From an uncultured Eubacteriales bacterium (GTDB lineage: Bacteria; Actinomycetota; Coriobacteriia; Anaerosomatales; JAAXUF01), in NCBI GenBank assembly GCA_964541225.1, contig CAZIPN010000001.1, positions 39,863 through 103,862 on the forward strand: 64,000 nt of DNA. Direction: 5' to 3'. Under the pieces are notes generated by a model. That model searched no databases. It was not told the DNA's origin and saw only the letters and a list, made by a program, of their open reading frames with translations. A program made the translations under genes and the position numbers. Numbering within the stretch: position 1 is the first letter of the stretch; each line of letters starts with the position of its first letter. This document shows positions 24,007 to 62,432 of the stretch, piece after piece.

Positions 24007-24198
24007 ATGAGCAGTATGGTCATCAATCTGAGCCGTTGCGACTCTAGCCCAGTGTGTCCTGTGCGGCGAGTCTGCCCCTCAGATGCGGTATATCCTGTCC
24101 CTGGCGGCTTTGCGATCGATCCCGAGAAGTGCGACATGTGCGGCAGCTGTCTCAGGGTGTGTCCCATGGGTGCTGTCGGCCTGGCCAAAGAAGGATAG
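24007..24198 (+). CDS. Small ferredoxin-like 4Fe-4S protein
   Basis: 63 aa, with [14 protein letters not shown] and the canonical [12 protein letters not shown]. Confidence 0.7.
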
Positions 24199-24200
24199 TC

Positions 24201-24545
24201 ATGTCAGAACAGGTCCGAGTAGACGTCTTCGACATCCCCGCTCCCAGCCTGTGTTTCTCGGGCGGTTGAGGTCCATCATGGTCTCCGGAGGAGATCACAG
24301 CGATCGTGCGTGACGAAATCCAGCGGAGGTTCGCCGATCAGGTGACCGTTGATTATCACAACGTCGACGAAGAAGCGGTGCGCACCGAGTACGCAACTCT
24401 CATCGGCGAGATTGAGACGCGTGGGTTGCTCTACCCCGTGACGGTCGTCGATTCCGTCCCCGTATACGACGGAGCCGTTAGCTACCCCGCAATCATGCGC
24501 GTCGTGACCAACAAGATCGCCGAACTTCAGGCTGCGGAAGGCTGA
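24201..24545 (+). CDS. ArsD/YuzD-like thioredoxin-fold protein with an in-frame UGA at 24267-24269 (candidate selenocysteine; 114 aa if read through)
   Basis: ATG 24201 lies 2 nt after the ferredoxin stop, with GAAGGA upstream. It is in the same frame as tracked ORF 24306..24545 (GTG). The joined product is MSEQVRVDVFDIPAPSLCFSGG-U-GPSWSPEEITAIVRDEIQ... The C-x4-U-G arrangement mirrors the ArsD motif C-S-T-G-V-C-G. A hairpin follows the UGA and selC is present in the window. Confidence 0.55.
24279..24297 (+). promoter_or_regulatory. SECIS-like stem-loop downstream of the in-frame UGA
   Basis: UGGUCUCC-GGA-GGAGAUCA forms 8 bp including one G-U. It starts 9 nt after the UGA, and the G-rich apical loop lies 17 nt after it. 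Confidence 0.45.
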
Positions 24546-24581: not shown

Positions 24582-25733
24582 ATGGACACGGTCAGCGTCG
24601 CGCGTTGCAGTACGTACGAACCTGCCGAGATTTCGGCAGCGCTTGCGCATGCACTTGCCCCAATCGGAGGCATGAAGGCGTTCGTCTCTCCCGGGCAGCG
24701 CGTGCTTCTCAAGATCAACCTCCTCTCGCGAGCAATCCCCGAGCGCGCGGTAACCACGCATCCCGAATTCGTTCGCGGCGTCATTCGAGAAGTGAAGGCT
24801 GTCGGCGGAATCGTCACCGTGGGAGACAGCCCTGGCGGCCCGAACAGCGCTGGCGCCGTCAGGAGGCTGTGGACTGAGACCGGCATAGGCGAAGTCTGCG
24901 AACAGGAAGACGTGCCCCTCGTGCTCTTCGACGATGACTGTGTTCGCGTCGCGGTCGACGAAAGCAGGCTGTACGGAGCCTTCACCCTGGGAAGAGCGGT
25001 CACAGAAACCGACGTCTTGATCACGCTGCCCAAGCTCAAGACGCATGGCTTCATGATGTTCACCGGCGCCGTCAAGAATCTGTTTGGCTGCATTCCAGGA
25101 CTCCAGAAAGCGCAGTACCACCTCAAGGTTCCTGACCGAGACGACTTCGCCAACATGCTCATCGACCTGCTCCTCGCCTGCCAGCCGAAACTCGCGCTCA
25201 TGGACGCCATTGTCGGCATGGAAGGTAAGGGGCCTGCAGGTGGCACACCCCGACATGTGGGCGCTATCCTTGCGTCCGCCGACAGCGTCGCACTTGACGT
25301 CATTGCCGCGTCGATGGCGGGGCTGGACCTCGCCGAGGTCTACACGAACCGCGCCGCCGCCCGCCGAGGACTGGGACCCAAAGAGATCTCTGAGGTCCCG
25401 ACAGCCGGAGTCGACTGGCGCGCGCTTGCGCCTGACCACTTCGCGCTTCCGGCCCGAGATGTCACAGCGGGAATGCCGCCGTGGCTCGGCAAACGGCTTC
25501 GAGGCTGGACGACTGCTCGGCCGGTCCTGGAGCGTCCAAGCGATTGCACGCGATGCCGGAAGTGTGAGGAGAGCTGCCCCGTCGGGGCCGTTCACGTCGG
25601 CGAGTCTGGGCCCGTCTTCGACTCGTCGTCGTGCATTCGCTGCTACTGCTGTCAGGAACTCTGTCCTACGCAAGCGATCGGTCTCACGGTCCCAGCACTG
25701 GCCCGTCTGGCAATGCGGAGCCGTCCTTCTTAA
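24582..25733 (+). CDS. DUF362 domain protein with a C-terminal 2x[4Fe-4S] ferredoxin domain
   Basis: The N-terminal DUF362-type sequence is VLLKINLL...THPEFVRGVIREV...VTVGDSPG. The C-terminus has CTRCRKCEESCP and CIRCYCCQELCP. Confidence 0.7.
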   Translation: MDTVSVARCSTYEPAEISAALAHALAPIGGMKAFVSPGQRVLLKINLLSRAIPERAVTTHPEFVRGVIREVKAVGGIVTVGDSPGGPNSAGAVRRLWTETGIGEVCEQEDVPLVLFDDDCVRVAVDESRLYGAFTLGRAVTETDVLITLPKLKTHGFMMFTGAVKNLFGCIPGLQKAQYHLKVPDRDDFANMLIDLLLACQPKLALMDAIVGMEGKGPAGGTPRHVGAILASADSVALDVIAASMAGLDLAEVYTNRAAARRGLGPKEISEVPTAGVDWRALAPDHFALPARDVTAGMPPWLGKRLRGWTTARPVLERPSDCTRCRKCEESCPVGAVHVGESGPVFDSSSCIRCYCCQELCPTQAIGLTVPALARLAMRSRPS

Positions 25734-35330: not shown

Positions 35331-38330
35331 TCAGCGATGGTAGGACTTGTTGGCCCCGCCGTGGCAGCCGTTAGTGCACGACCCGCCGCCCTTGCCACTT
35401 GAGTCCGCCGCCCATCCGACATCGCTGCGAAGACCAAATGGCTCGCTAGCCGACCCGTGACTCACGTGACATGACAGGCACGAGAAGCCACGCGCGACAT
35501 GCGACGAATGGAGCTTCGCGTCTGACCCGGCGTCAACGAAGCCACTGGATCGGGCCGCTTGACCGTCCGCGCTGCCATCTCCATAGATCTCGTACGAATG
35601 GCACTTGTAGCACAGAGTCCCCGCGTCGCCTGCCGACGCCCCCAACAGAGGCCTGACCAGAAGGGGCGCTGACGGAGAGGAGTGCGGCCCGTTTGGTTGG
35701 CCGACTGCCGATGTGCCCCGACCGTCTGAGTTCCCGTGGCAGTCCGTGCAGTTCACGCGCGACGACGGGCTGAGCCCACTGACGAGCGTCTGCCCAGTCG
35801 CATTGGTTGAGGGAGAGACCCCTTCGACCGGGTGAAACGACGCGTTGGTTGTGCGTAGCTCGGCATCAACGGGTCGCACTCCTGACAGCGCGGTCCATCC
35901 GTCATAGCTGGCGTGGCATTTCAGGCACACTTGATACTCGGCCGTCACACTCGTGTTCAGCGTGGGCGAAGAACCCGTCAACGACACGCCCCACGCACCG
36001 ACCAGTGCGCCAGGAAGGGCAGGAGCGGCAGCCACCGCCGACGTCGCTGCATGAACGTTATGGCAGTCCACGCAGGCGACGTGTTCGGCGAAGGGGGCGG
36101 TCTCGGTCGACACGTGCGCCTCTTGCGCAGCTTCTACAGGGTGCCGAGAAGGACCGATCGCGCCGAGATTGGCGGCGAGCACGTGTGTCGTCCCAGCAAG
36201 CTCGACGCCTCCGCCCGAGCGCTCGTCAACCACTCCGAGCCCAGTGCCGTCGACAGACGCGTGGACAATCGCCAGGCGCGGCGCCTGAGCGTCCGAGGCC
36301 AGATTCGCGCGCTGACCACCCATTCCTACAAGCAACTCAGCACGCCCATCGCCATCGACGTCTCCAACGGCAAGAGAGTCCGGATCGCTGTGCGCCGCGA
36401 AGGTGTGTGTGACCGGCGCGCCAAGTCCTGACCCGCCGAGAGGAAATACCTCGACCTTCTCTGAGCCTGAGGCCGAACCCAGCGCGACAGCGACTTCGTC
36501 GCCTAAGGTGCCTGACTCAGTTACCCCAGGCAGCACGTTGCCGACGGCCGTGGCCGTCGGGGAGGCGTCCGTGGTTGAGCCGCCGCTCGCAGTCTCGGTC
36601 CCATCGCGTGAGAAGACCGAGAGAATCGGGCTGAGTTCTCCCGCATTGGCCACCGCAACGTAGCCGTGGCCATCGCTGTCCGCTCGTCCAATCGAAGGCG
36701 AGCGTGGAAGCGCGCGCGTCGGATAAGTCCCCGCCACCGACAGTGTTGTTGGCGTTCCTTGCGTGAGTACGATCAATCGATCGGGGCCATTCGTGGTTAC
36801 GGCAATGTCAGCGTGGGAGTTGCCCAGGATGTGCCCCGCTGCCAAGCCGGTGATACTCCCAGGCAGCGCAACTGCTGTGATCGCATCGAAAGTCGCATCA
36901 CCGACATTCCACCGGTACACTCGCACGGTGCTCCCCGAGGCGGTCACAAGTTCGTCGCACCCGTAGGCGTCATCAAGCACATCAGCCACCGCTAGGTACT
37001 TCGCCGGAGCGAGCAGAGTTCGGTCACCTGGCTGCGGGGATAGACCGGCGAATTGGGACTCCGAAAACACCGTCACACGCGAAGTCCCCGCCCTCGCGAC
37101 GACGAGTTCGGTGGAGCCTGTTCCCTCGATGTCCCCTGCCGCGATCGCTCCGACGCGTCCGCTCGCGAAGCTTCGTGGCCCGGTGATCGTCGGAGATGAT
37201 GAACTGTCCCGAGTGAGTGTTTCGAGTTCGCCAAACTCATCCGTGTCAGGACCGGACCCGTACCCGACCACGGCGGACACAACCGGTGCGGGAGTGTAGC
37301 CGAGAGACTCCAGGTTCGCCGAAGCAGCCCCACCTGATCGGTGACAGTCGTAGCACAGCGCGCCCCCGACCTTCTTAGCGAGTCGAGGAATGGCTCCTCC
37401 TTTGCCATCGGAAGCGCCCATGGGTGCATGGCATGACTGGCATTCCCCCGCCGATCGCGACGTCTCCTCGCTGGCCCACTCTCCGCTGACAGAGACCGTC
37501 ACCGCCGTTGAGCCGTGAGCCGAGAGGGAATAGGTGGCGGTCCCTTCCCACGTGCGTTCAGGAGCTGCATGACAGACGACACATAGACTGCGGTCGTTGC
37601 CCGAAACCACATGGGTCGCACTCACCGATGGCGGGGCGATGGAGTGCACGATGTTGGGAGCAATCGATGATCCGTGTGGAGTGTGGCACACGGAGCACAC
37701 AACCCCCGTCCCCGACGCCGGAGGCGCGATGCTTGCGTGCGCTGTCTTGTTCCACACCGCAAGGCCCGGGAACTCATTGCCCGTCCGCGCCACGTGACAT
37801 GTTGCACAATACGCGTTGCCGCTGTAGACGAATCCGCCAGTCGCGACACGTGAGCGCAACAGCGCAGGGTAGGGTGAGTCATCGCTGCGCTTGGCACTGC
37901 CGTGCGAATCGTGGCAGTCACTGCACTCCTTGTAGTGCGGTCCGTAGGACGAGGAGTCGGGAGCGAGATGATGGCTCGACCCGGACTCAAACTGACTTTG
38001 GACGTCGTCGGTTGAGCCGAGCGAATCGACCCCATGGCATGCGTAGCAGAGCTGCACATCGCCACCGTCGGCCCCGGCCTTCCCCACAATCAACGCATTC
38101 GCACGATTCCCGCCAAAGTCCAGACCCGTCGGGATCTCAGACGCCGATGTGTGCACCCTGTGGCACATGGCGCACACATCGGTGTCCGTCCCGGTTGCAA
38201 CGTGGGGCGCGGGGACGTCGGCAAGTGCCACAGAAGGGGCCGCCAGGCTGCAGAGCACCAGCGCAACCGCTAGGAGAGCGTCGCGCAATGAAGCGACGGC
38301 CTCGTGCCTGTGCAGCCAAGTTGTGAGCAA
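35331..38330 (-). CDS. 999-aa secreted multiheme c-type cytochrome (13 CxxCH plus 1 CxxxCH) with a central FG-GAP/VCBS-type beta-propeller insertion
   Basis: Signal peptide LAVALVLCSLAAPSVALA. Eight CxxCH lie in residues about 50-340 and five, plus CTNGCH, in residues about 745-990. Between them are propeller-blade motifs (AAGDIEGTGSTELVVA, VADVLDDAYGCDELVTA, VGDVDGDGRAELLVG). Confidence 0.85.
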   Translation of the reverse strand: MLTTWLHRHEAVASLRDALLAVALVLCSLAAPSVALADVPAPHVATGTDTDVCAMCHRVHTSASEIPTGLDFGGNRANALIVGKAGADGGDVQLCYACHGVDSLGSTDDVQSQFESGSSHHLAPDSSSYGPHYKECSDCHDSHGSAKRSDDSPYPALLRSRVATGGFVYSGNAYCATCHVARTGNEFPGLAVWNKTAHASIAPPASGTGVVCSVCHTPHGSSIAPNIVHSIAPPSVSATHVVSGNDRSLCVVCHAAPERTWEGTATYSLSAHGSTAVTVSVSGEWASEETSRSAGECQSCHAPMGASDGKGGAIPRLAKKVGGALCYDCHRSGGAASANLESLGYTPAPVVSAVVGYGSGPDTDEFGELETLTRDSSSSPTITGPRSFASGRVGAIAAGDIEGTGSTELVVARAGTSRVTVFSESQFAGLSPQPGDRTLLAPAKYLAVADVLDDAYGCDELVTASGSTVRVYRWNVGDATFDAITAVALPGSITGLAAGHILGNSHADIAVTTNGPDRLIVLTQGTPTTLSVAGTYPTRALPRSPSIGRADSDGHGYVAVANAGELSPILSVFSRDGTETASGGSTTDASPTATAVGNVLPGVTESGTLGDEVAVALGSASGSEKVEVFPLGGSGLGAPVTHTFAAHSDPDSLAVGDVDGDGRAELLVGMGGQRANLASDAQAPRLAIVHASVDGTGLGVVDERSGGGVELAGTTHVLAANLGAIGPSRHPVEAAQEAHVSTETAPFAEHVACVDCHNVHAATSAVAAAPALPGALVGAWGVSLTGSSPTLNTSVTAEYQVCLKCHASYDGWTALSGVRPVDAELRTTNASFHPVEGVSPSTNATGQTLVSGLSPSSRVNCTDCHGNSDGRGTSAVGQPNGPHSSPSAPLLVRPLLGASAGDAGTLCYKCHSYEIYGDGSADGQAARSSGFVDAGSDAKLHSSHVARGFSCLSCHVSHGSASEPFGLRSDVGWAADSSGKGGGSCTNGCHGGANKSYHR

Positions 38331-38499
38331 TTGCAGTCGCCGTTCTGCTCGGATAGTGGCAGCCCCGGTTCGACCAGTCGAACCCGGATGGCCAAGATCA
38401 CTCCATTATAGTGACCGCAGACTCCAGCCATGTGCCCAACCGCAGGCCACGACCCTCACTGGTTTCCGGACTTCATACGAAGCAAGTAGTGAACCAGCG

Positions 38500-38523
38500 C
38501 TTGCGGGGAAGGTCGCCCGCAAG
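38500..38523 (-). terminator. Hairpin downstream of the FN3/DUF5648 gene
   Basis: CTTGCGGG-8 nt-CCCGCAAG, an 8-bp stem about 75 nt after the stop at 38598. No U-tract. Confidence 0.4.
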
Positions 38524-38597
38524 GCTACGCCAGGCGCGATCCACCCGCGATCCCGCTCTCCCCTTCTGAATCGCCGCAGAATCGCCTCCCCCGGCTC

Positions 38598-39020
38598 TCA
38601 CGGCGCTATCAAGTACGCGACTCCTTCGAGGGTCCATGTCTTGTAGAGCTTGGCGACGATGTTGTCCTTCTCGGCAGGGTCGGCCGAGTACAGATAGGTG
38701 CCATCCTTCAGGTTGCGGAAGCGCCACACTGGAGAACCGCTGGTTCTCGAGACGTTGTAGGCCGCTCCCTCAAGCTTGTAGGACTTGGAGAGGTTGGCAA
38801 CGATCGAGTCCTTCTCATTCGCGTCCGAGGTGTAGAGGTAGAAGCCGCTCTTGAGATTGCGGAAACGCCATAGTGGCGAGACATTGGCAAGCGTGTTGAT
38901 CCGGTAGGCCACGCCCTCGAGCTTCCACGTCTTGGACATGGTGGCCACGATGTTGTTCTTCTCGGCCTCGCTTGCCGTCCACAGGTAGTAGCCGTTCTTC
39001 AGGTTGCGGAAGCGGTAGAC
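38598..39020 (-). repeat. Three tandem coding repeats of about 130-145 bp (43-49 aa units)
   Basis: The units are VYRFRNLKNGYYLWTASEAEKNNIVATMSKTWKLEGVAYRI, LWRFRNLKSGFYLYTSDANEKDSIVANLSKSYKLEGAAYNV and VWRFRNLKDGTYLYSADPAEKDNIVAKLYKTWTLEGVAYLI. Confidence 0.8.
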
Positions 39021-39947
39021 ATTCCAGTACACGGCAGGAATACCACTCGACTCAACTGCTGGTCCCCAGTCGTCGGTGGAGACGTCCCACGGCTGCACGG
39101 CATACGTGTACGCCCTCGTAACGTCGGCCCCGGTATCCGTCATCGAGGTCGAAGTCGTGCTGGAGAGTTCCGTCCACGCATCAGCCATAGCGTCGTGGCG
39201 CCAGATGCGATAGCGGGGTGTGTCGCCGCTCGGCGAAGTGGCAGCAGTCCATGACAGCTGCACCGAGGAGAGCGAACTCGGATCACGCCCCACCACCAAG
39301 TCGCTCACTGCGGTGTACTTGTAGCCGGTGACCTTGATGTCATCGATCGTGGTCCCTTGTCCTGTGGGGCCCGTGGGATGGGACTCGAACTGGAAGCGGA
39401 AATACCCCGCAGCGGTGGGCGGGTTGCCGTAGACTCCCCGCTCGAGCTTCTGGCTGATCCAGCTCGTCGTCGGCAACAGGTCGGTGTTGGTGTAGTCATC
39501 ACCTGCCGAGGAACCCGTCGGTGTGTCACTCCAGTTCACGACGAATGGGTTGATCCCGCCCGCGTACGACTCGACGCTCGGCTCGATGTAGGAATACTGT
39601 ATCCACGACTGGGCGTATCCCGACGTGTCATCCACGTCCAACACGGCGAGTCCCCGTGTCCCTGCCGGGTAGGTCGCCCACGTTCCGTGGTATCCCGCGC
39701 ACCACAACCCCTTGGTGCCTCCTTGATGGCTCTGGCTGATGATGCCCCATGCCGCCGGCCCGGGCTCGGACCCTCCGAAGTCGTTGTATATGTCCAGCGT
39801 GTCTGAGGCACTCTCGAACCCAACGGACTGCAAGACCTTGGGATCGGTCTGCCACGGACACGCACTCGCATGCGCCACGCCCACGCCCGCGAACACCAGG
39901 AACGCCACCGCCAGGAGAATCGGGATCGCACGTGATCTCGCGCTCAT
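38598..39947 (-). CDS. Secreted protein with an N-terminal globular domain, an FN3-like domain and three C-terminal DUF5648-like repeats
   Basis: Signal peptide MSARSRAIPILLAVAFLVFAGVGVAHA. The FN3-like segment is SSVQLSWTAATSPSGDTPRYRIWRH. Three repeats follow the pattern W/YRFRNLK.G.YL.T....EK..IVA......KLEG.AY. Confidence 0.7.
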   Translation of the reverse strand: MSARSRAIPILLAVAFLVFAGVGVAHASACPWQTDPKVLQSVGFESASDTLDIYNDFGGSEPGPAAWGIISQSHQGGTKGLWCAGYHGTWATYPAGTRGLAVLDVDDTSGYAQSWIQYSYIEPSVESYAGGINPFVVNWSDTPTGSSAGDDYTNTDLLPTTSWISQKLERGVYGNPPTAAGYFRFQFESHPTGPTGQGTTIDDIKVTGYKYTAVSDLVVGRDPSSLSSVQLSWTAATSPSGDTPRYRIWRHDAMADAWTELSSTTSTSMTDTGADVTRAYTYAVQPWDVSTDDWGPAVESSGIPAVYWNVYRFRNLKNGYYLWTASEAEKNNIVATMSKTWKLEGVAYRINTLANVSPLWRFRNLKSGFYLYTSDANEKDSIVANLSKSYKLEGAAYNVSRTSGSPVWRFRNLKDGTYLYSADPAEKDNIVAKLYKTWTLEGVAYLIAP

Positions 39948-39963
39948 TGCTAGCACCTCGCAA

Positions 39964-40740
39964 TTACGGTTTCGTCGGGAAGACTGCAGCAGCTTGCTCG
40001 GCGAGACCCTTCGCCGAGGAGGGAGCATCGGTCGAAGTCAGCACGACTTCGAAGACGTAGCGGTTCCGGCTGAACGCAACACTCGCAAACCGGGTGCCGT
40101 CCGTGCCGAAATACGCACTGACACCGTTCACGGGCACAGCGGCGGCGTCCTTCGGGTAGAGCGACTTGGTGACCGACTGAAGAAAGGACGCGGACTTCGC
40201 AGGTGTCGCGCAGTCGTGCACCGACCACACCACGCTGGTCACTTTCGCTGCGGCCTTCGTGGGACTCCCGCCCACCGTCGCGTCGGGCCCATCGGCTTGT
40301 GCGCTGCCAAGCGCGTAGTCCGTGAACGCCTTTGGCAGCAGACTCCTCGGGCTCAGTGCCGTGGCCCACGGGTCCGGTCCTTGTGGGGCACCCGAGTTCG
40401 TGCTGGAGTTCTTGACGCTCTGCGTTGACGACGCCGACCCCGTCTGTTGCGACGCTTGCTGGGTCTTGGCGTCCTTCATGGCCTTCTTGGCCGAACTGTT
40501 GTGTGGATCGTACGTGACAGCCCGCTCGAAGAGCGCGATGGCCCCCGTGGTGTCCTTGGACGACAGTGCCTTCAGACCCTGCTGATACGCCTTCTTGCTT
40601 AGCTGCGATGGGGTGAGTTGTGTCGAGCTGGACGGTGCAGGATGCCGAGGCGCCGAGAACGCGTAGATGCCGCCGATCACGGCCGCGAGTATCAGGACCG
40701 TGGCAGCCCCGCTGAGCAGCGTTTTTGCACGAGGGCTCAC
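39964..40740 (-). CDS. Membrane-anchored hypothetical protein (one TM, one TPR-like motif, an S/T/Q-rich linker and an unknown C-terminal domain)
   Basis: TM helix LLSGAATVLILAAVIGGIYAF, and AYQQGLKALSSKDTTGAIALFERAVTYDP. The start overlaps the upstream stop (ATGA). Confidence 0.55.
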   Translation of the reverse strand: MSPRAKTLLSGAATVLILAAVIGGIYAFSAPRHPAPSSSTQLTPSQLSKKAYQQGLKALSSKDTTGAIALFERAVTYDPHNSSAKKAMKDAKTQQASQQTGSASSTQSVKNSSTNSGAPQGPDPWATALSPRSLLPKAFTDYALGSAQADGPDATVGGSPTKAAAKVTSVVWSVHDCATPAKSASFLQSVTKSLYPKDAAAVPVNGVSAYFGTDGTRFASVAFSRNRYVFEVVLTSTDAPSSAKGLAEQAAAVFPTKP

Positions 40741-42098
40741 GACATGTTCGCCTCGGCAGGTTGGGCAACCCTCGCCGCATTCAGCGCTTCCTCGTCGAGG
40801 GAGATCACTGCGCGATCGGCGGCATCTTCGACCGCCGTTGCCGCGCGGAATGCGAACTCACTGAAGCCTTCGGAATCTGACATGAGCGCCGAGAGCACGG
40901 GATCGTCCATGGTCAGGGGTTCGGTGCCGGGCAGGTTGGCCCTCGCCAGCCAGCTGTTGATTGCTGTGGCATCCAGAACCTGAGGGTCCTTCTCGAACGC
41001 GGCCAGGCCGCTGAAACCCCATTCGAGCCTCGTGCCCCCGCCGAATTGCTCTTCGAGTTCAGGAACCTCCCCCGACTCGAGCATGAACACCATCACTGCG
41101 TCCGACTCAAGCATCCAACGGATCTCGGAGAGAGTGCCCGCGATCAGAGAGCGTGTCTCCGCGGGCACCTGATACCACAACTCGAAGCCATCGAAGATGA
41201 GAGCCACCTTCGCGAAACGCGATCGCGCGAGCCGCACGATGGCTGCGAGGGTCTTCTTCGGGGCCTTCGTGATCTTGAGCTCCTCCGCCATCGCGGCCAG
41301 ACCGCGCTCCCGGTAGACCCTGAGCGCTCGCGCGACAACCGGGGACAGATGGGCCTTCGTGTGTTCGACTATGTAATCGACCATAGCCTGGTCGTTGCTT
41401 TCGTCTTCAGCGCGTTCTGACTCAGCCAGCAGAATCGCATTGGCTGGCGAGTCGGTGATACTCGAGTCGATCTCTGGAAGTGCCTCGTCTTCGTCGACGT
41501 CAGACTGCAGATCCGCGAAGCGTGTGTCGACGACGCGTTGGAGTTCCGGCCGGCGCTCGACGCGCGCCGAACCGAAAAGCTGGCGAACCGTCCCGGACGG
41601 CTCGGCAGCGAAACGCTCTTCGAAACGACGGTACTGCTCTTCGCCGAGTACCTGGTAGGACACCAGCCCGGTGTCCGGCTCCTGGAGCACGTCGGCGACG
41701 TAGCATTCCAGCGTCTTGTCAAAGTCACGAAACGCCAAACGCTCCGCGAGTATGGAGATGATCGACCGCACACGACCAAGTCGCATCATGAAGAGCTGCA
41801 CGTAGGCGTGCAGCACGCCTACGCCGTCGTCGCTTGCCAGCGACTGCTCGGTCTCACCGACCGCGCGAAGTGCATAGAATTGCGGGACGTCGTCAGATTT
41901 CATGACCGCGATCGGTTTTGCCTTCTCCTGCCGAGCGGCCTCAAGAATCCGCCCCAGCAGTTCGTTGGCGGCCGCCACCGTCTCCAGCTCAACCCCATCG
42001 AAATCCGTTGCATTCACGGGCGTAGCGAAAGGGTTGGCCAGCAGGCCAAGAGGCCGATAGCGCTCGACGTCGTGAACGATGCTCAGATCACGTGTCAC
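40737..42098 (-). CDS. Hypothetical 453-aa cytoplasmic protein, possibly a degenerate AAA+/ORC-like fold lacking Walker A
   Basis: It has an N-terminal ANPF motif and a Walker-B-like VALIFDGFE. No GxxxxGK[ST] is visible. There is an acidic low-complexity insert. Confidence 0.5.
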   Translation of the reverse strand: MTRDLSIVHDVERYRPLGLLANPFATPVNATDFDGVELETVAAANELLGRILEAARQEKAKPIAVMKSDDVPQFYALRAVGETEQSLASDDGVGVLHAYVQLFMMRLGRVRSIISILAERLAFRDFDKTLECYVADVLQEPDTGLVSYQVLGEEQYRRFEERFAAEPSGTVRQLFGSARVERRPELQRVVDTRFADLQSDVDEDEALPEIDSSITDSPANAILLAESERAEDESNDQAMVDYIVEHTKAHLSPVVARALRVYRERGLAAMAEELKITKAPKKTLAAIVRLARSRFAKVALIFDGFELWYQVPAETRSLIAGTLSEIRWMLESDAVMVFMLESGEVPELEEQFGGGTRLEWGFSGLAAFEKDPQVLDATAINSWLARANLPGTEPLTMDDPVLSALMSDSEGFSEFAFRAATAVEDAADRAVISLDEEALNAARVAQPAEANMS

Positions 42099-42183
42099 TC
42101 ACTGGCTCCTTTGTGTGGGCGCTCGCTGAGCCTCGGCATCAAGACGACTTAGCTCCTCGAGCACCGCCAAGTCTCAACGGTGC

Positions 42184-42213
42184 GGGGTCTCGGACCATAC
42201 GGTCCGAGACCCC
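42184..42213 (-). terminator. Strong GC hairpin after the hydrogenase/cytochrome operon
   Basis: GGGGTCTCGGACC-atac-GGTCCGAGACCCC is a perfect 13-bp stem, 53 nt after the cytochrome stop (42266). Confidence 0.65.
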
Positions 42214-42265
42214 CCGTTGACCCCCGAAGCCACGGCAGATGCGGCTCCGATGGGCTCACATGGTC

Positions 42266-43723
42266 TTACTTGTTGTGGCAACGCTCGCACACGCCGCGAT
42301 TGTCGGCACGCAAGAGAGCGCTTGAACCTTGAAGGTTCGCGCCGTTGTAGACGCCCTTGTCGGGATCGACACCGGCGATACCATCCCTAACGGGGTGATA
42401 CACCGTATCGGATCCGAGAGGAGTCGTGACGGTCGCGGTCTCAAGATGCGAAGCAGCGTAGCCAGTCATGTCGCTTGAGCTACCGTGAGCACGGTGGCAG
42501 GTCAGACAACCGATGTAGTTGTCAGTCCACGTGCTGTTGGTCGCACCGTTCTGCTCCAGGGGCACCCATGCGTCGTCCTCGCGAACCTGCTCAGTGAGCG
42601 AGCGGTTGTTCGGGTTCGGATCGGCACCAGCCGCAAGGGTCTGGTCGATCGGGTGACGATGGAAGTTCTGAGTCCCCACCTTCGGCGCAGGACCCGTGGC
42701 GGGCAGATACGGATCGTAGTTGTAGGACACCGCTGCGCCAGCCGAGGCCTGGTTGTAGTCCACGTGGCACGCCGAACACCACACTGACATCGACTTGCTG
42801 GCGGGGGTGCCAGCTGCAGCCGTGTCGGTATGCAGGATGACAGTGCCAGTCGTGTCGGTGTAGTTCGGACGGTAGTCGGCCATCTGCGCCGCTCCGTCAG
42901 CGTGCTTCAGCCAACCGCCCGTTGGGTTGCTGCCGTCCTTCACGCCGCCGCCACCGTTGGTGACGCTCGACGGGATCGGATAGCCCTGCTCATCCGAGAA
43001 GACGAACGGGTTTGGCGTCAGACCATCCACGCCTGTGTAGCCACCGACCACGGGACCGGCCGGGTTCGGCTGCGCCTTCAGAAGGCGGTAGTTCGACGAA
43101 CCATGCGGATCGTGGCAATCGGTGCACGTCAGGTTGGACTGAGTCGCAACCGCGTTGCCTGAACCCCACAGCGGACCGGAAACATCCATGCGGTGCGCGG
43201 ATGTGGTGCCCACGTAGGCAACTGTAGCGTTGGTCTGCCACTCGTAGGGATCGGGCATGCGATTGAAGCCACCGCCGTTGAGCGGTGCTCCGAACGTCGA
43301 GTCCGTCTGGTACGCGGTAGCCACATCGACTCCGCCGTCGACGGTGCCAAAGGCACCAGCCGAGACGGTGGTCACGCCACTGTTGGTCGGCGGAGTGATG
43401 CCACTTGCCGCCGAAGGACCGCTGTCAAAAACACCGCTCGCAACGTTCGTCGAAGCGCCAGGAGCGAGGTCGCCGTGGCACGCGTCACAGAAGTCCGTCA
43501 TCGTCGTGGCATTGCCGACGAGCAAGGCGCTCGCATGATCGTTGCCGTTGGAGTCTGTCCAACCGACGGTCGAGAACGACGTATGCGCGCGGTGACAGCC
43601 GGCGCACGAATCCGTGTCGTTCACGTAGCCGCCGTGCGGGCCGAAGTTCGCGTAAGCACCGCTGGCAAAGGCCAGGACGAAGCCCACACACAAGACAAGC
43701 GCGAGAGAGAATCGTTTCAACAT
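42266..43723 (-). CDS. Secreted hexaheme c-type cytochrome with an OmcS-like motif layout
   Basis: Signal peptide; six CxxCH (CAGCH, CDACH, CTDCH, CSACH, CLTCH, CERCH), the last one 2 residues from the stop. ATG 43723 has GGAGG 5 nt upstream and lies 16 nt after the hydrogenase large-subunit stop. Confidence 0.8.
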   Translation of the reverse strand: MLKRFSLALVLCVGFVLAFASGAYANFGPHGGYVNDTDSCAGCHRAHTSFSTVGWTDSNGNDHASALLVGNATTMTDFCDACHGDLAPGASTNVASGVFDSGPSAASGITPPTNSGVTTVSAGAFGTVDGGVDVATAYQTDSTFGAPLNGGGFNRMPDPYEWQTNATVAYVGTTSAHRMDVSGPLWGSGNAVATQSNLTCTDCHDPHGSSNYRLLKAQPNPAGPVVGGYTGVDGLTPNPFVFSDEQGYPIPSSVTNGGGGVKDGSNPTGGWLKHADGAAQMADYRPNYTDTTGTVILHTDTAAAGTPASKSMSVWCSACHVDYNQASAGAAVSYNYDPYLPATGPAPKVGTQNFHRHPIDQTLAAGADPNPNNRSLTEQVREDDAWVPLEQNGATNSTWTDNYIGCLTCHRAHGSSSDMTGYAASHLETATVTTPLGSDTVYHPVRDGIAGVDPDKGVYNGANLQGSSALLRADNRGVCERCHNK

Positions 43724-43739
43724 CTTCACCTCCTAATGG

Positions 43740-45791
43740 TTAGTGGATCGCACAAGCGAGACACGGGTCAAACGACTGGGCAACACGCAGAACCTCAACG
43801 CCAGCCTTCGTGGTGACATTGCCACTCTGGCCTTCGAAGGTCGTGGTGATGTCCGCAAGTGGCGTACCGATAACGGCCGCCTCGATGGCGCCTTTCTGCA
43901 GAGTCGCGCCAGAGCCAGTGGTCGGCGAGCCGTTCCACGTGGTCGGGACGATGCACTGGTACTTCGTGATCTTGCCAGCCTTGATGGTCACCTGGTGCAT
44001 GAGGGCACCCCGTGGAGCCTCGGTGCCACCCCAGCCCTGAACAGTACCGGCTGGGATGCTCTTCGTCCGCCACGTCGAGCCATCGGTGTCGTTCGCACCA
44101 CCGGTCTGGTGCTTGAGCTTACCAGTCCAGCTCGTGGTATCGCCGGGATTTTCGCACGCAAACATACCGGTGGCCTTGTCGTACGCACCAATCATCTGCT
44201 GCACAAGAACAAGCGACTCGATGCCGCGGCCACGCAAACGGTCCATGGTGGACAGACCAGCGGTCAGACCGATCACCCAGGCAGCAATGTCACCTGTGAT
44301 GACGGCGTTCGCATCGGTGTACGCAGCAACGATCGCAGCGTGCGACAAACCCGAAACCGTCGTGATCTCAGTTGGCGTGCCACCGTCATCGATGGTGAGG
44401 GTCGCGAGACCCGCATTCAGCAAGGCAACCGCGATGTCGGCCTCGATCATCGCCGGGTCAAGACCCATCGTGCTGTTGGCCGTCTTCACATACGCCGTAT
44501 AGGCGCCGCCCAAAGAAGTCGCAAGGGCCGTACCGTTGACGAACCACTCGTTAACATAGCAGCGCGCCATCGGACCGACTTCACAAGCCTTGCCGTTCCA
44601 GCGCGGGGCCTTCATGTACGAATAGCCGTTAGAGCGCTTCGGCTGCGTACGAGAGACATCGCCGGGATAGGCCGCAGTGGCGGGGTTGCTACCCGTGCCG
44701 TACACAGCGCTATCGCCCGCGTAGACCTGGTAGCGCGAGTTCTCGATGTCCTCCACAAGGTTGCTCGGGACCGAGTTGGTGCCTCCAGCCAGAAGCTTCG
44801 ACGCGACATCACCTTTGGTCTTCGCCTGGAAGTTGTCCGTTCCATCGTTGACATCGAGGAGTCCGCCCCACACGCCGAGCGGTGCAGTGCTGTCGGTCAC
44901 GTCCGAAGCCGGGAACGCACCCCAAGCCAGGAAGCGGCCGAGACCGGCGCCATAAGCGGGGCTGTCAGTGACGTTGCTCGCGTTGTCGTAGTTCGGATAC
45001 AGAACACCAAGGGCGAGGACAATCGGCACGTACTCCTTGATGATGAAGAGGCCGACCTCCTTCATGATGTCCTCGAACATCGTGACTCGGCTGGTCAGGT
45101 CCTCGGTGCCGTCGAACGTCACGCCGCCCGCACAATAGGTGGACGTCATGGGCATGCGGCCCGCGAACAGGGCGCCCGCCTCAAACGTGAGACGGCGGAT
45201 ACGCAAAGCCACGACGTAGCTGCGGATAACCGTCGACCAGACGTCAGCTGAGAAGCCCATAGTGCCGTCAATCAACGGAGCCACTCCGCGTCCGCCCACT
45301 TGCACGCCGTGCCCGGTGGACACGAGAGCGGGGCTGTAGTGCGCGTCATCGAAATACGGTGTCCAAGGCGGCATGTTCGGACCTTGAACGTAGCTCGGCG
45401 CAGCGAGGTGGTAGAAGTGGGTGATGTTCGACATCAGGAACTCTGAGCCGAGCACCAAGTTGCGAATACTGACGGCTTTGGCGGGAACGCCGTTGGTGCC
45501 GTCGTAGGCGAACGTGATGTGCCCAGCGCTATAGCCGAGCACAGTGTCGATCGCATACGTAGAGGTCATGCCGTGCGGCACTGGGCAGACCCCGCAGATA
45601 CGCTGCGTGAACGTGATGGCATCGTTAGCTTCCCGACCCAGCAAGAAGTTCTCGAAGCCGCGCCACATGTTGCCATGTGCGCTTGCGTCGGAAACGATGC
45701 CCGAGCCATCTGTGGTGACTTTGACGCCAAGGTGACCTTCAATACGTGAAATCGGGTCGACTTCGACAGTCACTCCGGTGCGATTACTCAT
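43740..45791 (-). CDS. [NiFe] hydrogenase large subunit (683 aa; no C-terminal maturation extension)
   Basis: N-terminal RIEGHLG and the L1 motif QRICGVCPVPH. The C-terminal L2 motif DPCLACAIH is followed immediately by the stop. Confidence 0.9.
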   Translation of the reverse strand: MSNRTGVTVEVDPISRIEGHLGVKVTTDGSGIVSDASAHGNMWRGFENFLLGREANDAITFTQRICGVCPVPHGMTSTYAIDTVLGYSAGHITFAYDGTNGVPAKAVSIRNLVLGSEFLMSNITHFYHLAAPSYVQGPNMPPWTPYFDDAHYSPALVSTGHGVQVGGRGVAPLIDGTMGFSADVWSTVIRSYVVALRIRRLTFEAGALFAGRMPMTSTYCAGGVTFDGTEDLTSRVTMFEDIMKEVGLFIIKEYVPIVLALGVLYPNYDNASNVTDSPAYGAGLGRFLAWGAFPASDVTDSTAPLGVWGGLLDVNDGTDNFQAKTKGDVASKLLAGGTNSVPSNLVEDIENSRYQVYAGDSAVYGTGSNPATAAYPGDVSRTQPKRSNGYSYMKAPRWNGKACEVGPMARCYVNEWFVNGTALATSLGGAYTAYVKTANSTMGLDPAMIEADIAVALLNAGLATLTIDDGGTPTEITTVSGLSHAAIVAAYTDANAVITGDIAAWVIGLTAGLSTMDRLRGRGIESLVLVQQMIGAYDKATGMFACENPGDTTSWTGKLKHQTGGANDTDGSTWRTKSIPAGTVQGWGGTEAPRGALMHQVTIKAGKITKYQCIVPTTWNGSPTTGSGATLQKGAIEAAVIGTPLADITTTFEGQSGNVTTKAGVEVLRVAQSFDPCLACAIH

Positions 45792-45813: not shown

Positions 45814-47202
45814 CTAGGAACGCACCACGAAGGGCACGTAGCTGTCCGGGTAGCCTTTCTCGGTGCAAGCCATGCATGGGTGACCGGCGCGAGTGCAGTT
45901 GCCGCCCTGATACGGAGCGCCGCCGCTCTCGGCAGTATTGGCCGTGGCGATTGCCTGCTGAGCTGTCGTGCCAACACCGACGTTCTGCGGCTGCTGCTGA
46001 TTCCAGCCGTGGACTGTACACAGGGAGTGCGCGGCAGGACCCTTGCAGCCAATCTTCTGCAGACATCCATGACCACCTGGGTGGGTGGCAAAGATACCCT
46101 TGACGTAGTAGCGATACTTCGAGCACTTCGGTCCATGCACCGTGCTCGTGTACACGGCCTTGAGACGACGCGTACCGTCAACGGCGGCACCATGGATCCC
46201 GATGCCAGTGCCGTTGGTCGAGCTCGTAGCAACACTCTCAAGGACGCCGAGCGTACCGACAGTACCGATGCTCTGGCCGTAGACACTCGGAACATCAACC
46301 ATGACCGCGACAACCGAGAGCACGAACCACCATGGGTTCGTCGGACAGCCGGGAACGTTGACTACCTTGGCAGCCGCAGCACTCGTGTGAGCGGTGAGGT
46401 AGTCGAAGGTCCCGAGAGCACCAGTTTGCGACTTGGTAGCATCGAAGCCTGCATCCGTTGACTTGATCGGAGGCTTGCAGGCCGGATAGCCGCCGAAGGT
46501 CGCACACTGGCCGATCGCAATGATTGCGACGCACTCAGGCTTCTCGCCGAGAGCCAGGACCATCTCGCCCGTGACGATATCGGCGGTGCCAGGTTCGTTC
46601 TTGGCGATCGAGCACCACGGTACGGTTGAGGAGTCGCCCCACGCGCCACCGTTGCTGGTCGCCTGAAGCGCGCCCTCTACGACGAGCACGAACGGCTTGG
46701 TGTTGTTGCTCGCAAAGTCGTCGAGCCAGCTGTACGCGAGCTCACCGCCCATACCCATGACCGTCTCGTGATAGAGCAAGTCGATCACATCGATGACGAT
46801 GTCGGCGATGTCAACCGCACCGGGATCGGGGCTCAGGTTGTTATGAGCAAGGGTGAAATCGTCTCCCGAGGTCAGACCATTCGTGATCGGCAGAGTGCCT
46901 GCGATCCCGAGCGCGTCTGCCGTGGAGATGTCTGTCCCGGTTGGATTGATGTACATGTCGAGCGCGACGCCGCTTGGGTTCTCGTAGATGCCGAGAACTG
47001 ACGTCGAGCACCCGGTGCATTCCGCGCCGTGAAGCCATACAACGCGAGGCTTGCCGAACGTGCCCTGGTAGACACTGCCCACGCCCGAGTTCGGGTCGTA
47101 GGCAACTGCCTCCATGATCTTGGAGGCTTCCACTTGGCTGAAGCCTGCGGCGGCGGCGAGTGCACCCAAACGAGTGACGAACTGTCGCCTGGTGATTGCC
47201 AT
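45814..47202 (-). CDS. [NiFe] hydrogenase small subunit with a Tat signal (462 aa)
   Basis: Tat signal MAITRRQFVTRLGALAAAAGF. Cluster ligands are HGAECTGCSTS, GQCATFGG, VPGCPTNP, GCLQKIGCKGP and AGHPCMACTEKGYPD. AGGAGG lies 8 nt upstream of the ATG. Confidence 0.9.
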   Translation of the reverse strand: MAITRRQFVTRLGALAAAAGFSQVEASKIMEAVAYDPNSGVGSVYQGTFGKPRVVWLHGAECTGCSTSVLGIYENPSGVALDMYINPTGTDISTADALGIAGTLPITNGLTSGDDFTLAHNNLSPDPGAVDIADIVIDVIDLLYHETVMGMGGELAYSWLDDFASNNTKPFVLVVEGALQATSNGGAWGDSSTVPWCSIAKNEPGTADIVTGEMVLALGEKPECVAIIAIGQCATFGGYPACKPPIKSTDAGFDATKSQTGALGTFDYLTAHTSAAAAKVVNVPGCPTNPWWFVLSVVAVMVDVPSVYGQSIGTVGTLGVLESVATSSTNGTGIGIHGAAVDGTRRLKAVYTSTVHGPKCSKYRYYVKGIFATHPGGHGCLQKIGCKGPAAHSLCTVHGWNQQQPQNVGVGTTAQQAIATANTAESGGAPYQGGNCTRAGHPCMACTEKGYPDSYVPFVVRS

Positions 47203-50701: not shown

Positions 50702-52324
50702 TCAGATTCCTAGGTTCTTGTGACATCGGAGGCACAGCTCCGCACCACGATAGGGGGCAATGGTGTTGTTCAGGGGGTCAACCGCCCCGTGACACTGGTA
50801 GCACAATCGCAGGTCATGCCCTTGCTGAAGCTCGAGTTTGCGCGCCGCTGCGCTCGTACCGAAAGACACATGGCAGTCAAAACAGTGATAGGGCCGCCCC
50901 TTCTTCTTCGCCACATTGAAGTGGACGGCATGTTCGGCGATCCCCTTGTCCTGAATGGATGTTGGTGGCTGCTGTGCCGCCTCGGGGTGGCAACCCACGC
51001 AACTCGAAGCCACGAGCTCTGCATTGGCCACCTTCTGGTGGTGGCAGTTCTGGCACGTCTGCCGGTCCGTATGACAGATGTTGCAGTCGGCGCTGCTAAC
51101 ACCCGGCTCGGGCTTGTGGTTCTCGATCCAGTTGGCCGGATGCGGCATGGTCGTCTTGTGACACCGCCGACAGGAAGCGTCGTCGTGGCACGCGCCGCAA
51201 TCCCCTTTCTTGGCGATGAAGAGCTTGCCATGCTGAGCCTGCCAATCTCCCTTCTGATGTGACTTCGGGACCACCGGCTGCTTGGGCGCGCCCGGACTCT
51301 TGCTCTTGCCTTGGTGACATTGCACGCAGAACTGAGTCTTGTGGCACATCGAGCAGTACGATGGGTCGCTGCCAGCCCTGTCCTTGTGACCGCTCGCAAT
51401 GAATCGCGCTGTGTGGTTGTTCGGTGTCAGCTTGAACCCGGGCGGATGGCACTTGTTGCACTCAGCCGTGGCGACTAGTCCCTGACTCTGGTGCTGCAGC
51501 CCATGGCAGCGATAGCACGACTGCATGTCTGGCTTGACGGGCCCGCTCGCGGTGTGACCGAACGTGGGATGGCACGTCTCGCAGGCGTAGTCGCGCTGCA
51601 GGTGCACTGCGTGTGCGAAGATCAGCCGCCCAGGCACGATGTTGTCGAGATCCGGATGACAGTACTGACATTGCGCCATGTTGGTCGGTCCACTTGGATA
51701 GATCTTGACCGACGCGGGCTGCGGACGCTGGGCAACAACCGAGACGTACGCGTCAGCCAAAGCGGCGATCTTGACGCCCTTCTTCGCGTGACAGTCGTTG
51801 CAATCCTTGCTTGCCGTGTGGCACATCATGCATTGGTTCACGCCGCCACGACGCGCCAGCTCCGCGTGCGCTTTCCCGCTGAAAGACTTCGCAGGTTGAT
51901 GGTCGGCTGGCACGAGATCGAACGACGGCGTATGACACTTGTCGCACTCGGCAGTCGCGAGCGGACCTTGGGGTCCGTGACTCACCCCGTGGCACGCGAA
52001 GCACACTTCCATCGGCACCGAGTCCGTCGCTCCGTTCTGGTGGGGTATCCGCGAGTGGCACCCATCGCACGAAATCAGAAGGTGATTGCCGTGGTTGAAC
52101 ATCAACCCCGGCTTCTTCACCGTTCCTAGGTCAAGATGGCACGGTGTGCACTGTGACGAGTCGGTGACTGGCGCCCCAGTGTCGATGACGGGGCCCGCCG
52201 ACGTTGCCGAGCCGCTGTCTGCGGCCAGAGTCCCCGTGGCCGAAACAAGCACGAAGGTCACCGCCGCAAGCGCCACGGCGACTGCAATCACCCTCCTGCT
52301 CAGTTGTCCACTTCCACGACTCAC
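50702..52324 (-). CDS. Multiheme c-type cytochrome with 20 CxxCH motifs
   Basis: 20 CxxCH were counted in the translation. There is an N-terminal anchor or signal (VIAVAVALAAVTFVLV). I trimmed the start to GTG 52324, 20 nt after the upstream stop; the tracked ORF overlaps the upstream gene by 113 nt. Confidence 0.85.
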   Translation of the reverse strand: MSRGSGQLSRRVIAVAVALAAVTFVLVSATGTLAADSGSATSAGPVIDTGAPVTDSSQCTPCHLDLGTVKKPGLMFNHGNHLLISCDGCHSRIPHQNGATDSVPMEVCFACHGVSHGPQGPLATAECDKCHTPSFDLVPADHQPAKSFSGKAHAELARRGGVNQCMMCHTASKDCNDCHAKKGVKIAALADAYVSVVAQRPQPASVKIYPSGPTNMAQCQYCHPDLDNIVPGRLIFAHAVHLQRDYACETCHPTFGHTASGPVKPDMQSCYRCHGLQHQSQGLVATAECNKCHPPGFKLTPNNHTARFIASGHKDRAGSDPSYCSMCHKTQFCVQCHQGKSKSPGAPKQPVVPKSHQKGDWQAQHGKLFIAKKGDCGACHDDASCRRCHKTTMPHPANWIENHKPEPGVSSADCNICHTDRQTCQNCHHQKVANAELVASSCVGCHPEAAQQPPTSIQDKGIAEHAVHFNVAKKKGRPYHCFDCHVSFGTSAAARKLELQQGHDLRLCYQCHGAVDPLNNTIAPYRGAELCLRCHKNLGI

Positions 52325-52343
52325 GCCAGCAGAACTCCTGTTC

Positions 52344-58211: not shown

Positions 58212-58307
58212 GCGCCCTCCTCGGAAGCGTCCCGGTGGTCACAGCATACCCAATTGGTGGCCGAGGAGACCGGCCGGCAAGACGGCTCCGGAAGCGTCGA
58301 TTTGTGG

Positions 58308-59315: not shown

Positions 59316-59516
59316 GACCCTCCAGACAGGCGCGTATGAACGCTTCCCTGAGCGGTGCGACGAACGCATCCCGCTGAAAGCCGAGCATTCGCACGTAATC
59401 GTAACAAAGGGGTGTCCAAAGGGAACCAATAAAGCGGTACACTTTGCAACTGGAAAGGCGTACCAACAAGGGAAGTGTGTGCCGCTGAGCGCGGCCGTTA
59501 CGAAGGGGTGGGTCAG

Positions 59517-60188: not shown

Positions 60189-60267
60189 TAGCTCAACCTA
60201 TCGGCCTCCGAGAAATGCCGTCGCGCACGTGCGACGGCATTTCTTCGTCCGATGTGTCACCCAAGCA

Positions 60268-61763: not shown

Positions 61764-61769
61764 CAGTCA

Positions 61770-62246: not shown

Positions 62247-62335
62247 GACGGGCCTTTCCTCCTTGCGCAGTCTATCTGACTCGCGGCAGTGCCACGCAAC
62301 ACATGATCTCACCTGCCGAGAAACCTGGACAGTGC

Positions 62336-62432
62336 TGGCGGAGGCGTGTGCGAATCGAACACACCCGGGACGCTCTTCACGCCCCACGCTGGTTTTGAAG
62401 ACCAGGGGCACCACCAGGAACCGTCCGCCTCC
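62336..62432 (-). tRNA. selC: tRNA-Sec (selC), anticodon UCA
   Basis: The reverse complement is GGAGGCGGACGGTTCCTGGTGGTGCCCCTGGTCTTCAAAACCAGCGTGGGGCGTGAAGAGCGTCCCGGGTGTGTTCGATTCGCACACGCCTCCGCCA (97 nt). It has anticodon loop CTTCAAA, a 6-bp D-stem with a 4-nt loop, a long variable arm (6-bp stem), a 5-bp T-stem and a 7-8-bp acceptor stem. It closely parallels my recollection of E. coli selC. Confidence 0.9.

Follow-up and report, generated by a model that had tools for sequence, protein, structure and literature searches.

The window analysed here is a 64,000-nucleotide (nt) stretch of contig CAZIPN010000001.1 from an uncultured bacterium of the Coriobacteriia, and the subject of this report is a region on its forward strand, 24201–24545, in which an open reading frame (ORF) is crossed by an in-frame UGA. 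Comparative analysis indicates that this region is very probably one gene, encoding a selenoprotein of 114 residues in which a cysteine and a selenocysteine (Sec) would form a redox pair, with the ferredoxin encoded directly upstream as electron partner. A preliminary description of the same DNA, made from the sequence alone, had proposed an ATG at 24201, just after the ferredoxin stop and preceded by a GAAGGA motif, a frame that runs through TGA 24267–24269 into the ORF recorded at 24306–24545, and a hairpin at 24279–24297 that begins 9 nt after the UGA and has its apex 17 nt away. All of these coordinates were rechecked in the sequence and by translation, and were found to be correct. From ATG 24201 the frame crosses the TGA, passes GTG 24306 unshifted and stops at TGA 24543–24545. 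The read-through translation is MSEQVRVDVFDIPAPSLCFSGG-U-GPSWSPEEITAIV...YPVTVVDSVPVYDGAVSYP...AAEG (114 residues), with GPSWSPEE directly after the UGA. The gene's own stop is also a TGA, so that the same codon would be used as Sec and as stop at a distance of 276 nt on one mRNA, and the hairpin follows only the first of these two copies.

A protein search yielded about 300 homologues, the best 120 of which were listed. The close set used for comparison comprised 82 sequences: the window, locus L001 and 80 loci from a scan of one genome per species, that is, 81 loci related to the window. The 80 loci from the scan are all from Coriobacteriia or related Actinomycetota metagenome-assembled genomes (MAGs), and their tblastn matches run across the stop. 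TGA occupies the Sec site in every one of the 82 sequences, between C-[FYW]-S-G-G on its 5' side and G-P-S-W-S-P-E-E-I-T-A-I on its 3' side, and in nearly all close loci an ATG with a GGAGG-like sequence before it is found 22–23 codons 5' of the TGA. The same in-frame TGA recurs in more than 50 far more divergent homologues from metagenomes, with 20–37% identity; the distant TGA-bearing homologues comprise L082, L084, L085 and L086, which came from the protein search, and L087–L143. A scan of metagenomes with a DNA pattern gave 57 matches, 56 of them true family members. Among 129 distinct family members, the spacing from Cys to Sec is four residues in 104, three in 22 and five in 3. The occurrence of an identical arrangement in 81 of 81 related loci and in 56 of the 57 pattern matches is far beyond chance.

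The codon-position entropy of the 14 codons before the TGA (0.75, 0.61 and 1.29 at the first, second and third positions, respectively) is the same in pattern as that of the 20 codons after the hairpin (0.75, 0.62 and 1.31), while intergenic DNA has an entropy of about 1.9 at each of the three positions. Thus, the piece 5' of the TGA is translated in this frame. The homologues align across the UGA, with TGA in the close sequences and Cys in some relatives, and the outcome that the preliminary description had named as fatal to its proposal, namely that all homologues begin at the GTG and lack the Cys motif, is not what was found: the upstream DNA always encodes the beta-strand and the Cys motif in frame. 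In two loci from long-read assemblies or MAGs (L079 and L081), the TGA and the hairpin are kept and the frame is lost just 3' of the hairpin; these frameshifts are probably single-base assembly errors and not signs of pseudogenes. The Gly codon before the UGA (24264–24266 in the window, which has a G+C content of 62%) is GGT or GGA in 80 of the 82 close sequences and never GGG, and is GGC or GGT in distant members; this bias may represent a sequence-context preference for Sec decoding.

In the databases, nearly all gene callers treat the UGA of this family as a real stop, which for the window would mean a 22-residue leader peptide and a separate 79-residue DUF1462 fragment from GTG 24306. Among the best 120 homologues listed, 119 are recorded as proteins of 63–86 residues that start after the UGA, NCBI naming its own shortened entries "DUF1462 family protein", and TGA is indeed a normal stop in this organism. 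However, the annotated starts vary and are not conserved (VRDE, MRDE, MTAIV, MIVRDE, MAAEL), and no genuine conserved internal start was found after the UGA. The NCBI "MTAIV" starts (entries P0006, P0015, P0044, P0064 and P0088) fall on the non-canonical Ile codon ATC of EEITAIV, as seen in L010 and its aligned close relatives. Conservation in the protein is highest in the stretch between the UGA and the annotated start (GPSWSPEEITAI), next to which third positions are variable, and the 22 upstream codons, which evolve as coding sequence in the same frame, supply the first beta-strand and the Cys that a thioredoxin fold needs. Moreover, homologues with Cys at the Sec site are single continuous ORFs, and the shortened product would be devoid of strand beta1 and of the entire active-site motif. 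Termination at the UGA is therefore highly improbable, and the 79-residue ORF with a GTG start is, by comparison with its homologues, an annotation artefact and not a real gene start.

Another possibility is that the UGA is decoded as something other than Sec, either as Trp or Gly by an altered genetic code or by near-cognate read-through stimulated by the hairpin. Trp is indeed given at the Sec site in some JGI and ENA calls (P0002, P0126, P0131, P0133 and P0137), including P0002, the one full-length call among the homologues listed. The contigs of these calls, that of P0002 included, nevertheless have TGA at this site, and the Trp calls as a group disagree with the table-11 translation of their contigs, one of them (L082) also overrunning its true TGA stop; they look like artefacts of gene calling with table 4. 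Among the normal stops of the window TGA is the most frequent, ending 26 of the 50 long ORFs as well as this gene, and this ordinary use as a stop excludes a reassigned code. In addition, homologues have at the aligned site neither Trp nor Gly but Cys, which is the usual counterpart of Sec, a tRNA-Sec gene is present, and the hairpin matches the model of a bacterial selenocysteine insertion sequence (SECIS), including the GG of its loop. The chance that the UGA is read in some other way is accordingly considered very slight. The tRNA-Sec gene, noted in the window by the preliminary description, was detected by both ARAGORN and Rfam (RF01852).

The hairpin that follows the UGA is UGGUCUCC-GGA-GGAGAUCA, with the first G of the loop 17 nt from the UGA. 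Folded alone, it has a minimum free energy (MFE) of −9.3 kcal/mol, a stability reached by just 2 of 200 shuffled sequences. The fold energy of the 60-nt context is no better than that of shuffles (z = +0.45), so that the hairpin is established by the comparative data and could not be from thermodynamics alone. No variation occurs among the 82 close sequences from nucleotide +12 to +31 after the T of the TGA (TGGTCTCCGGAGGAGATCAC), a stretch in which third codon positions are fixed as well, namely those of Ser (TCT), two Glu and Ile; the Pro codon, whose third position lies within the hairpin loop, has G there in 78 of 82. At the flanking third positions (+5, +8, +11, +32 and +35) all four bases occur. 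In distant members the lower stem has undergone compensatory changes, from UGGUCUC/GAGAUCA to CUGUCUC/GAGACAG, CGGUCUC/GAGACCG or CAAUCUC/GAGAUUA.

Stem pairs were counted on 129 distinct hairpin sequences, in which 97.8% of the stem cells are standard pairs. One pair occurs as GC (107), AU (13), UA (4) or GU (3), another as UA (102) or CG (7), and a third as GU (102), AU (14) or GC (13). In total, 24 double-change cells were observed versus 3.5 expected from shuffles, and none of 500 shuffles reached 24; every slid register of the stem paired far worse (28–64%). Published criteria for bacterial SECIS elements (PMC13188914) describe a loop N1-G-G-N-N2, in which N1 pairs with N2, and an MFE limit of −7.5 kcal/mol. 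The window hairpin agrees with the criteria of that source, having a stem of 7–8 bp, a loop (C)GGA(G), a distance from UGA to loop of 16–17 nt and the MFE given above. The earlier proposal that the hairpin lies within the bacterial SECIS range is thus borne out, and the covariation check it suggested revealed both invariance at synonymous sites and compensatory changes. Taken at the level of these alignments, the hairpin behaves as a functional RNA under RNA-level selection. The region would thereby be dual-coding, the SECIS fixing the peptide W-S-P-E-E-I-T.

Relatives with Cys in place of Sec were identified by an exhaustive HMMER search with P0002. Cys stands at the Sec column in P0121, P0136, P0140, P0142, P0149 and P0150, and in P0127 it was placed one column over by the aligner. 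The more distant of these forms (P0127, P0136, P0140, P0142, P0149 and P0150) have the motif C-x3/4-C-G. P0121 is 51% identical to P0002 and carries ...CCSSGC-C-GPAWSSEE..., and its locus is equivalent to that of the window, with a ferredoxin directly upstream and DUF2085 nearby. In the DNA encoding P0121, three otherwise invariant hairpin bases are altered, one of them a loop G, which is what release from the SECIS constraint would produce. Cys at the Sec site was found in none of the 81 related loci; Sec therefore dominates among near relatives, and Sec forms appear to outnumber Cys forms there.

As to the fold, the window protein matches Pfam DUF1462 (PF07315) marginally (26.3 bits versus a cutoff of 25), the Cys homologues P0121, P0127 and P0150 score 32.9, 28.6 and 28.5 bits, respectively, and many of the database homologues bear a precomputed PF07315 assignment. 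An AlphaFold2 model of P0002 (mean predicted local distance difference test score, pLDDT, 84; predicted template modelling score, pTM, 0.75) has a beta-alpha-beta-alpha-beta-beta-alpha thioredoxin-like fold. Foldseek comparison with the PDB gave Staphylococcus aureus SA0798 (1XG8, a DUF1462 protein) as the top match (E-value, 9.5 × 10−5; template modelling scores, 0.55/0.64), followed by thioredoxins and ArsD. A PDB search with a single sequence returned noise only, and a profile was needed. The family profile matched 1XG8 with an E-value of 1.9 × 10−7; in this alignment, the upstream Cys corresponds to the first Cys of the C-A-S-C motif of 1XG8 and the Sec column to the second, with two extra residues between the pair in the new family. 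The same profile matched ArsD 3KTB (E-value, 0.005), Sec falling on the Cys of "LCG".

Alignment by hhalign to Escherichia coli R773 ArsD placed Sec opposite Cys18 and the upstream Cys opposite Cys12, at a probability of 88.8%. The ArsD sequence used was verified as a full-length ArsD (163 bits). Pfam ArsD gave no match for the window protein at E ≤ 1, and the other ArsD scores also remained below threshold (P0121, 24.7 bits versus 27 for Pfam; NF033727, 15–24 bits versus 90). The window protein lacks the vicinal Cys12–Cys13 pair, one Cys and the Sec taking the places of Cys12 and Cys18. Neither arsA nor any other ars gene was observed in the gene neighbourhoods that were inspected. The C-x2-C of DUF1462 is not present either; C-x4-U is found instead (x3 to x5 across the family). 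Judged by these matches, the protein is of the DUF1462/YuzD type and remotely related to ArsD, but is not an ArsD. The ArsD/YuzD-like thioredoxin fold of the preliminary description accordingly holds as a resemblance (DUF1462 score, 1XG8, ArsD alignment) and fails as an identity with ArsD, the protein being YuzD-type. Its placement of Sec at ArsD Cys18 agrees with both hhalign and the profile, and the upstream Cys had to be reassigned from Cys13 to Cys12.

Similar to DUF1462/YuzD as represented by 1XG8, members of the new family have a small thioredoxin-like fold of about 110 residues with the active-site pair between strand beta1 and helix alpha1. They differ from YuzD, which has two Cys in C-x2-C, by C-x4-U with Sec in the second position, by a SECIS in the coding region and by the pairing with a ferredoxin. 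The new family is found in anaerobic Actinomycetota (Coriobacteriia) and other uncultured lineages, whereas characterised DUF1462 members such as 1XG8 are from Firmicutes; no functional study of YuzD was found in the literature. With ArsD (PF06953, NF033727; 3MWH, 3KGK, 3KTB) the family shares the fold, the placement of Cys after beta1 and a similar C-terminal half (...LP-x-hydrophobic strand-DG-...-G-x-YP). Unlike ArsD, it falls below the family thresholds, has no vicinal Cys12–Cys13 and lies outside any arsA/ars operon context. ArsD itself is not known as a selenoprotein, being absent from the 2026 list (PMC13188914).

The features of the locus are given in Table 1. In 77 of the 81 loci, the gene immediately preceding the selenoprotein gene encodes a homologue of the ferredoxin, and the distance from the ferredoxin stop to the selenoprotein start ranges from −4 to +29 nt; a DUF362 gene follows downstream in only 32 of 81. 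The ferredoxin family has seven conserved Cys, C-x5-C-x5-CP ... C-x2-C-x2-C-x3-CP (C-D-R/S-S-P-x-C-x5-CP plus CxxCxxCxxxCP), an unusual pattern that leaves a second cluster site without one Cys. In metagenomic locus L102, a canonical thioredoxin (WCAPC) carries a fused ferredoxin domain of the same type (39% identity, CDSSPxC...CP), and the fusion ORF lies 529–1177 nt upstream of the Sec codon of that locus. Distant Sec members have thioredoxin-reductase-like flavoproteins, thioredoxin, Grx-like proteins and OsmC as neighbours. Across the loci as a whole, the neighbouring genes encode the ferredoxin, DUF362, a DnaJ-domain protein, an MCP and an EamA transporter. In one divergent metagenomic subfamily with Sec (L089, L096, L100, L132, L133 and L143), the gene stands after a ThiI/PP-loop ATPase-like protein with an NFACT-R RNA-binding domain and not after a ferredoxin, which indicates that partner genes differ between subfamilies. 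Long upstream frames in some loci were considered as ferredoxin–selenoprotein fusions and rejected, their sequence being Arg/Pro-rich and off-frame, as is typical of GC-rich DNA.

Table 1. Positions of the selenoprotein gene and associated features in the window
Feature	Position	Strand	Description
Ferredoxin gene	24007..24198	+	63 aa, 63 codons, stop TAG; first gene of the two-gene module; Pfam Fer4 families match
Shine-Dalgarno-like GAAGGA	24190..24195	+	5 nt 5' of ATG 24201; within the end of the ferredoxin gene; read from the sequence
Full predicted selenoprotein coding sequence	24201..24545	+	114 codons, Sec = codon 23, stop TGA 24543-24545; DUF1462/YuzD-like thioredoxin fold
Cys18 codon, Sec partner in the C-x4-U motif	24252..24254	+	Invariant column in the family alignment
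In-frame UGA, predicted to be read as selenocysteine (Sec23)	24267..24269	+	TGA kept in homologues; Cys in others
Putative SECIS hairpin inside the coding sequence	24279..24297	+	7-bp stem (24279-85 with 24291-97) plus closing C-G pair; loop (C)GGA(G)
79-aa ORF with GTG start, as recorded by gene callers	24306..24545	+	From the ORF list; annotation artefact
DUF362 protein with C-terminal 2x[4Fe-4S] domain	24582..25733	+	Optional third gene; Pfam DUF362 202 bits plus Fer4 matches
tRNA-Sec, anticodon UCA	62336..62432	-	Decoding tRNA required for the UGA at 24267; ARAGORN; Rfam RF01852 70.9 bits vs threshold 47

Based on this organization, a mechanism can be proposed. Translation would start at ATG 24201 just past the ferredoxin stop, a position that makes co-translation of the two genes probable. 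On reaching UGA 24267–69, the ribosome would meet hairpin 24279–24297 acting as a bacterial SECIS, and SelB carrying Sec-tRNA(Sec) is expected to bind the GG-containing apical loop, leading to insertion of selenocysteine at position 23; translation would then run on to the ordinary stop TGA 24543–45. The C18-x4-U23 motif would be located in the loop between strand beta1 and helix alpha1, in place of the CxxC of YuzD, and the pair would most likely cycle between the selenol/thiol and selenenylsulfide states, with the dedicated upstream 7-Cys ferredoxin as the presumed electron partner. The adjacency of the ferredoxin, the L102 fusion and the redox-protein neighbours favour a redox-active Cys/Sec pair that exchanges electrons with ferredoxin, and the function is therefore given as probably that of a ferredoxin-linked selenol/thiol redox protein.

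Alternatively, the protein may be a selenoprotein in which Cys and Sec form a ligand site, either as an ArsD-like chaperone of soft metals or metalloids or as a provider of an Fe-S ligand shared with the 7-Cys ferredoxin. The alignment of Sec with the As(III)-binding Cys18 of ArsD, and of the upstream Cys18 with ArsD Cys12, is in line with this explanation, as is P0121, which has an ArsD-like CC-x3-CC and approaches the Pfam ArsD threshold (24.7 versus 27 bits). The same may be said of the partner ferredoxin with its only seven conserved Cys, and of the optional downstream DUF362, an Fe-S protein; according to a 2026 review (PMC13188914), metals take part in about 70% of the ligand interactions predicted for families of selenoproteins. 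Nevertheless, the neighbours examined include no arsA or ars genes, the scores against NF033727 (15–24 bits versus 90) and the lack of a Pfam ArsD match for the window protein speak against an ArsD function, and a single upstream Cys is present there where ArsD has a vicinal pair. Furthermore, the closest structure and family is YuzD/DUF1462 with its CxxC motif, and distant Sec members adjoin thioredoxin reductase-like, thioredoxin, Grx-like and OsmC genes. A ligand site is thus regarded as rather unlikely, and the redox-active pair is preferred.

Several points weigh against the interpretation as a ferredoxin-linked selenoprotein. The AlphaFold2 model was built on P0002, which has Trp at the Sec site, and the Cys/Sec loop is its least confident part (pLDDT of about 64). 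Because 49 of the 129 hairpin sequences were collected with a DNA pattern that itself prescribed the loop GG and the four upper pairs, covariation is informative only for the three lower pairs; the lowest stem pair is open in 18 of the 129. A scan of about 30 ORFs and a motif search in the 64-kb window detected none of selA, selB and selD. The redox function and the ferredoxin partnership are inferred from homology, adjacency and one domain fusion, and the adjacency of the ferredoxin is not universal in distant subfamilies.

Elsewhere in the window, the tRNA-Sec gene stands alone, with neither selA nor selB adjacent (flanks 57003–63764); its neighbours encode an FetAB-like ABC exporter, a prenyl diphosphate synthase, a flavorubredoxin-like protein and an NrfH-like cytochrome. 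The large (43740–45791, minus strand) and small (45814–47202, minus strand) subunits of a hydrogenase have [NiFeSe] models as their best NCBIfam matches, all below cutoff. The large subunit was considered as a second selenoprotein of the [NiFeSe] type and rejected, because its C-terminus, DPCLACAIH followed by TAA, is of the Cys ([NiFe]) type. Several genes for large multihaem c-type cytochromes are found around the hydrogenase (35331–43729, minus strand; 50702–53672, minus strand; 62616–63764, plus strand), with doubled CXXCH motifs and DmsE-like decahaem and NrfH-like traits. The multihaem cytochromes suggest an anaerobe with extracellular or periplasmic electron transfer.

With regard to novelty, a comparison of 11 diverse family members with NCBIfam release 20 (June 2026) gave no selenoprotein model, their matches at E ≤ 1 being limited to weak ArsD, MTH895/ArsE thioredoxin-like and unrelated models. 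Table 1 of PMC13188914 (2026), which contains 119 prokaryotic selenoprotein families and subfamilies, includes neither PF07315 nor YuzD nor ArsD. They are not mentioned in the deep-Sep paper, in the Haft 2022 preprint or in the main text of BSepDB, whose family table might still list the family under another name, and no literature linking DUF1462, YuzD or ArsD to selenoproteins was found. The preliminary remark that ArsD-like proteins are not known among the described bacterial selenoprotein families agrees with both PMC13188914 Table 1 and NCBIfam release 20. Thioredoxin-fold bacterial selenoproteins in that table include Sec-thioredoxin (UxxC), glutaredoxin (UxxC), SelW-like (CxxU) and AhpD-like (CxxU) proteins, among others. 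As in these, the present family has a small redox-fold protein with Sec in place of one Cys of a redox pair, a UGA with a SECIS hairpin in the coding sequence, Cys homologues and routine truncation by gene callers. It differs from them in belonging to another Pfam family (PF07315), in the wider C-x4-U spacing and in that Sec forms appear to be commoner than Cys forms among near relatives.

By these comparisons, the family is a predicted new one within a known kind, that of thioredoxin-fold Sec proteins with a SECIS in the coding region. It stands out by its C-x4-U motif, by the prevalence of Sec forms, by its close association with a ferredoxin and by a hairpin (in part fixed by the search pattern) that is recognisable at 20–37% protein identity. 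A further-reaching proposal can be offered only tentatively: the YuzD/DUF1462-like C-x4-U proteins may be an ancient, mostly Sec-containing and hitherto unrecognised family, with a SECIS conserved more deeply than the protein, which together with the 7-Cys ferredoxin could constitute a new two-gene, ferredoxin-driven redox module of anaerobic Actinomycetota and other uncultured anaerobes.

Hundreds of database entries of this family are N-terminally truncated "DUF1462 / YuzD" fragments without the active site, and a few others are mistranslated with table 4, with Trp at the Sec position. Reading the UGA as Sec would allow these entries to be corrected and a new family model to be provided for annotation pipelines. 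The proposed gene would add to the selenoproteome a thioredoxin-fold family with an unusual C-x4-U motif, and would extend the use of Sec in Actinomycetota of the class Coriobacteriia. It may also provide the first functional handle on DUF1462/YuzD, in which the second Cys of CxxC is the position of a natural Sec substitution, implying that this residue is the reactive one. Finally, a redox couple linked to ferredoxin is suggested by the near-obligate pairing of the predicted selenoprotein with the small 7-Cys protein.

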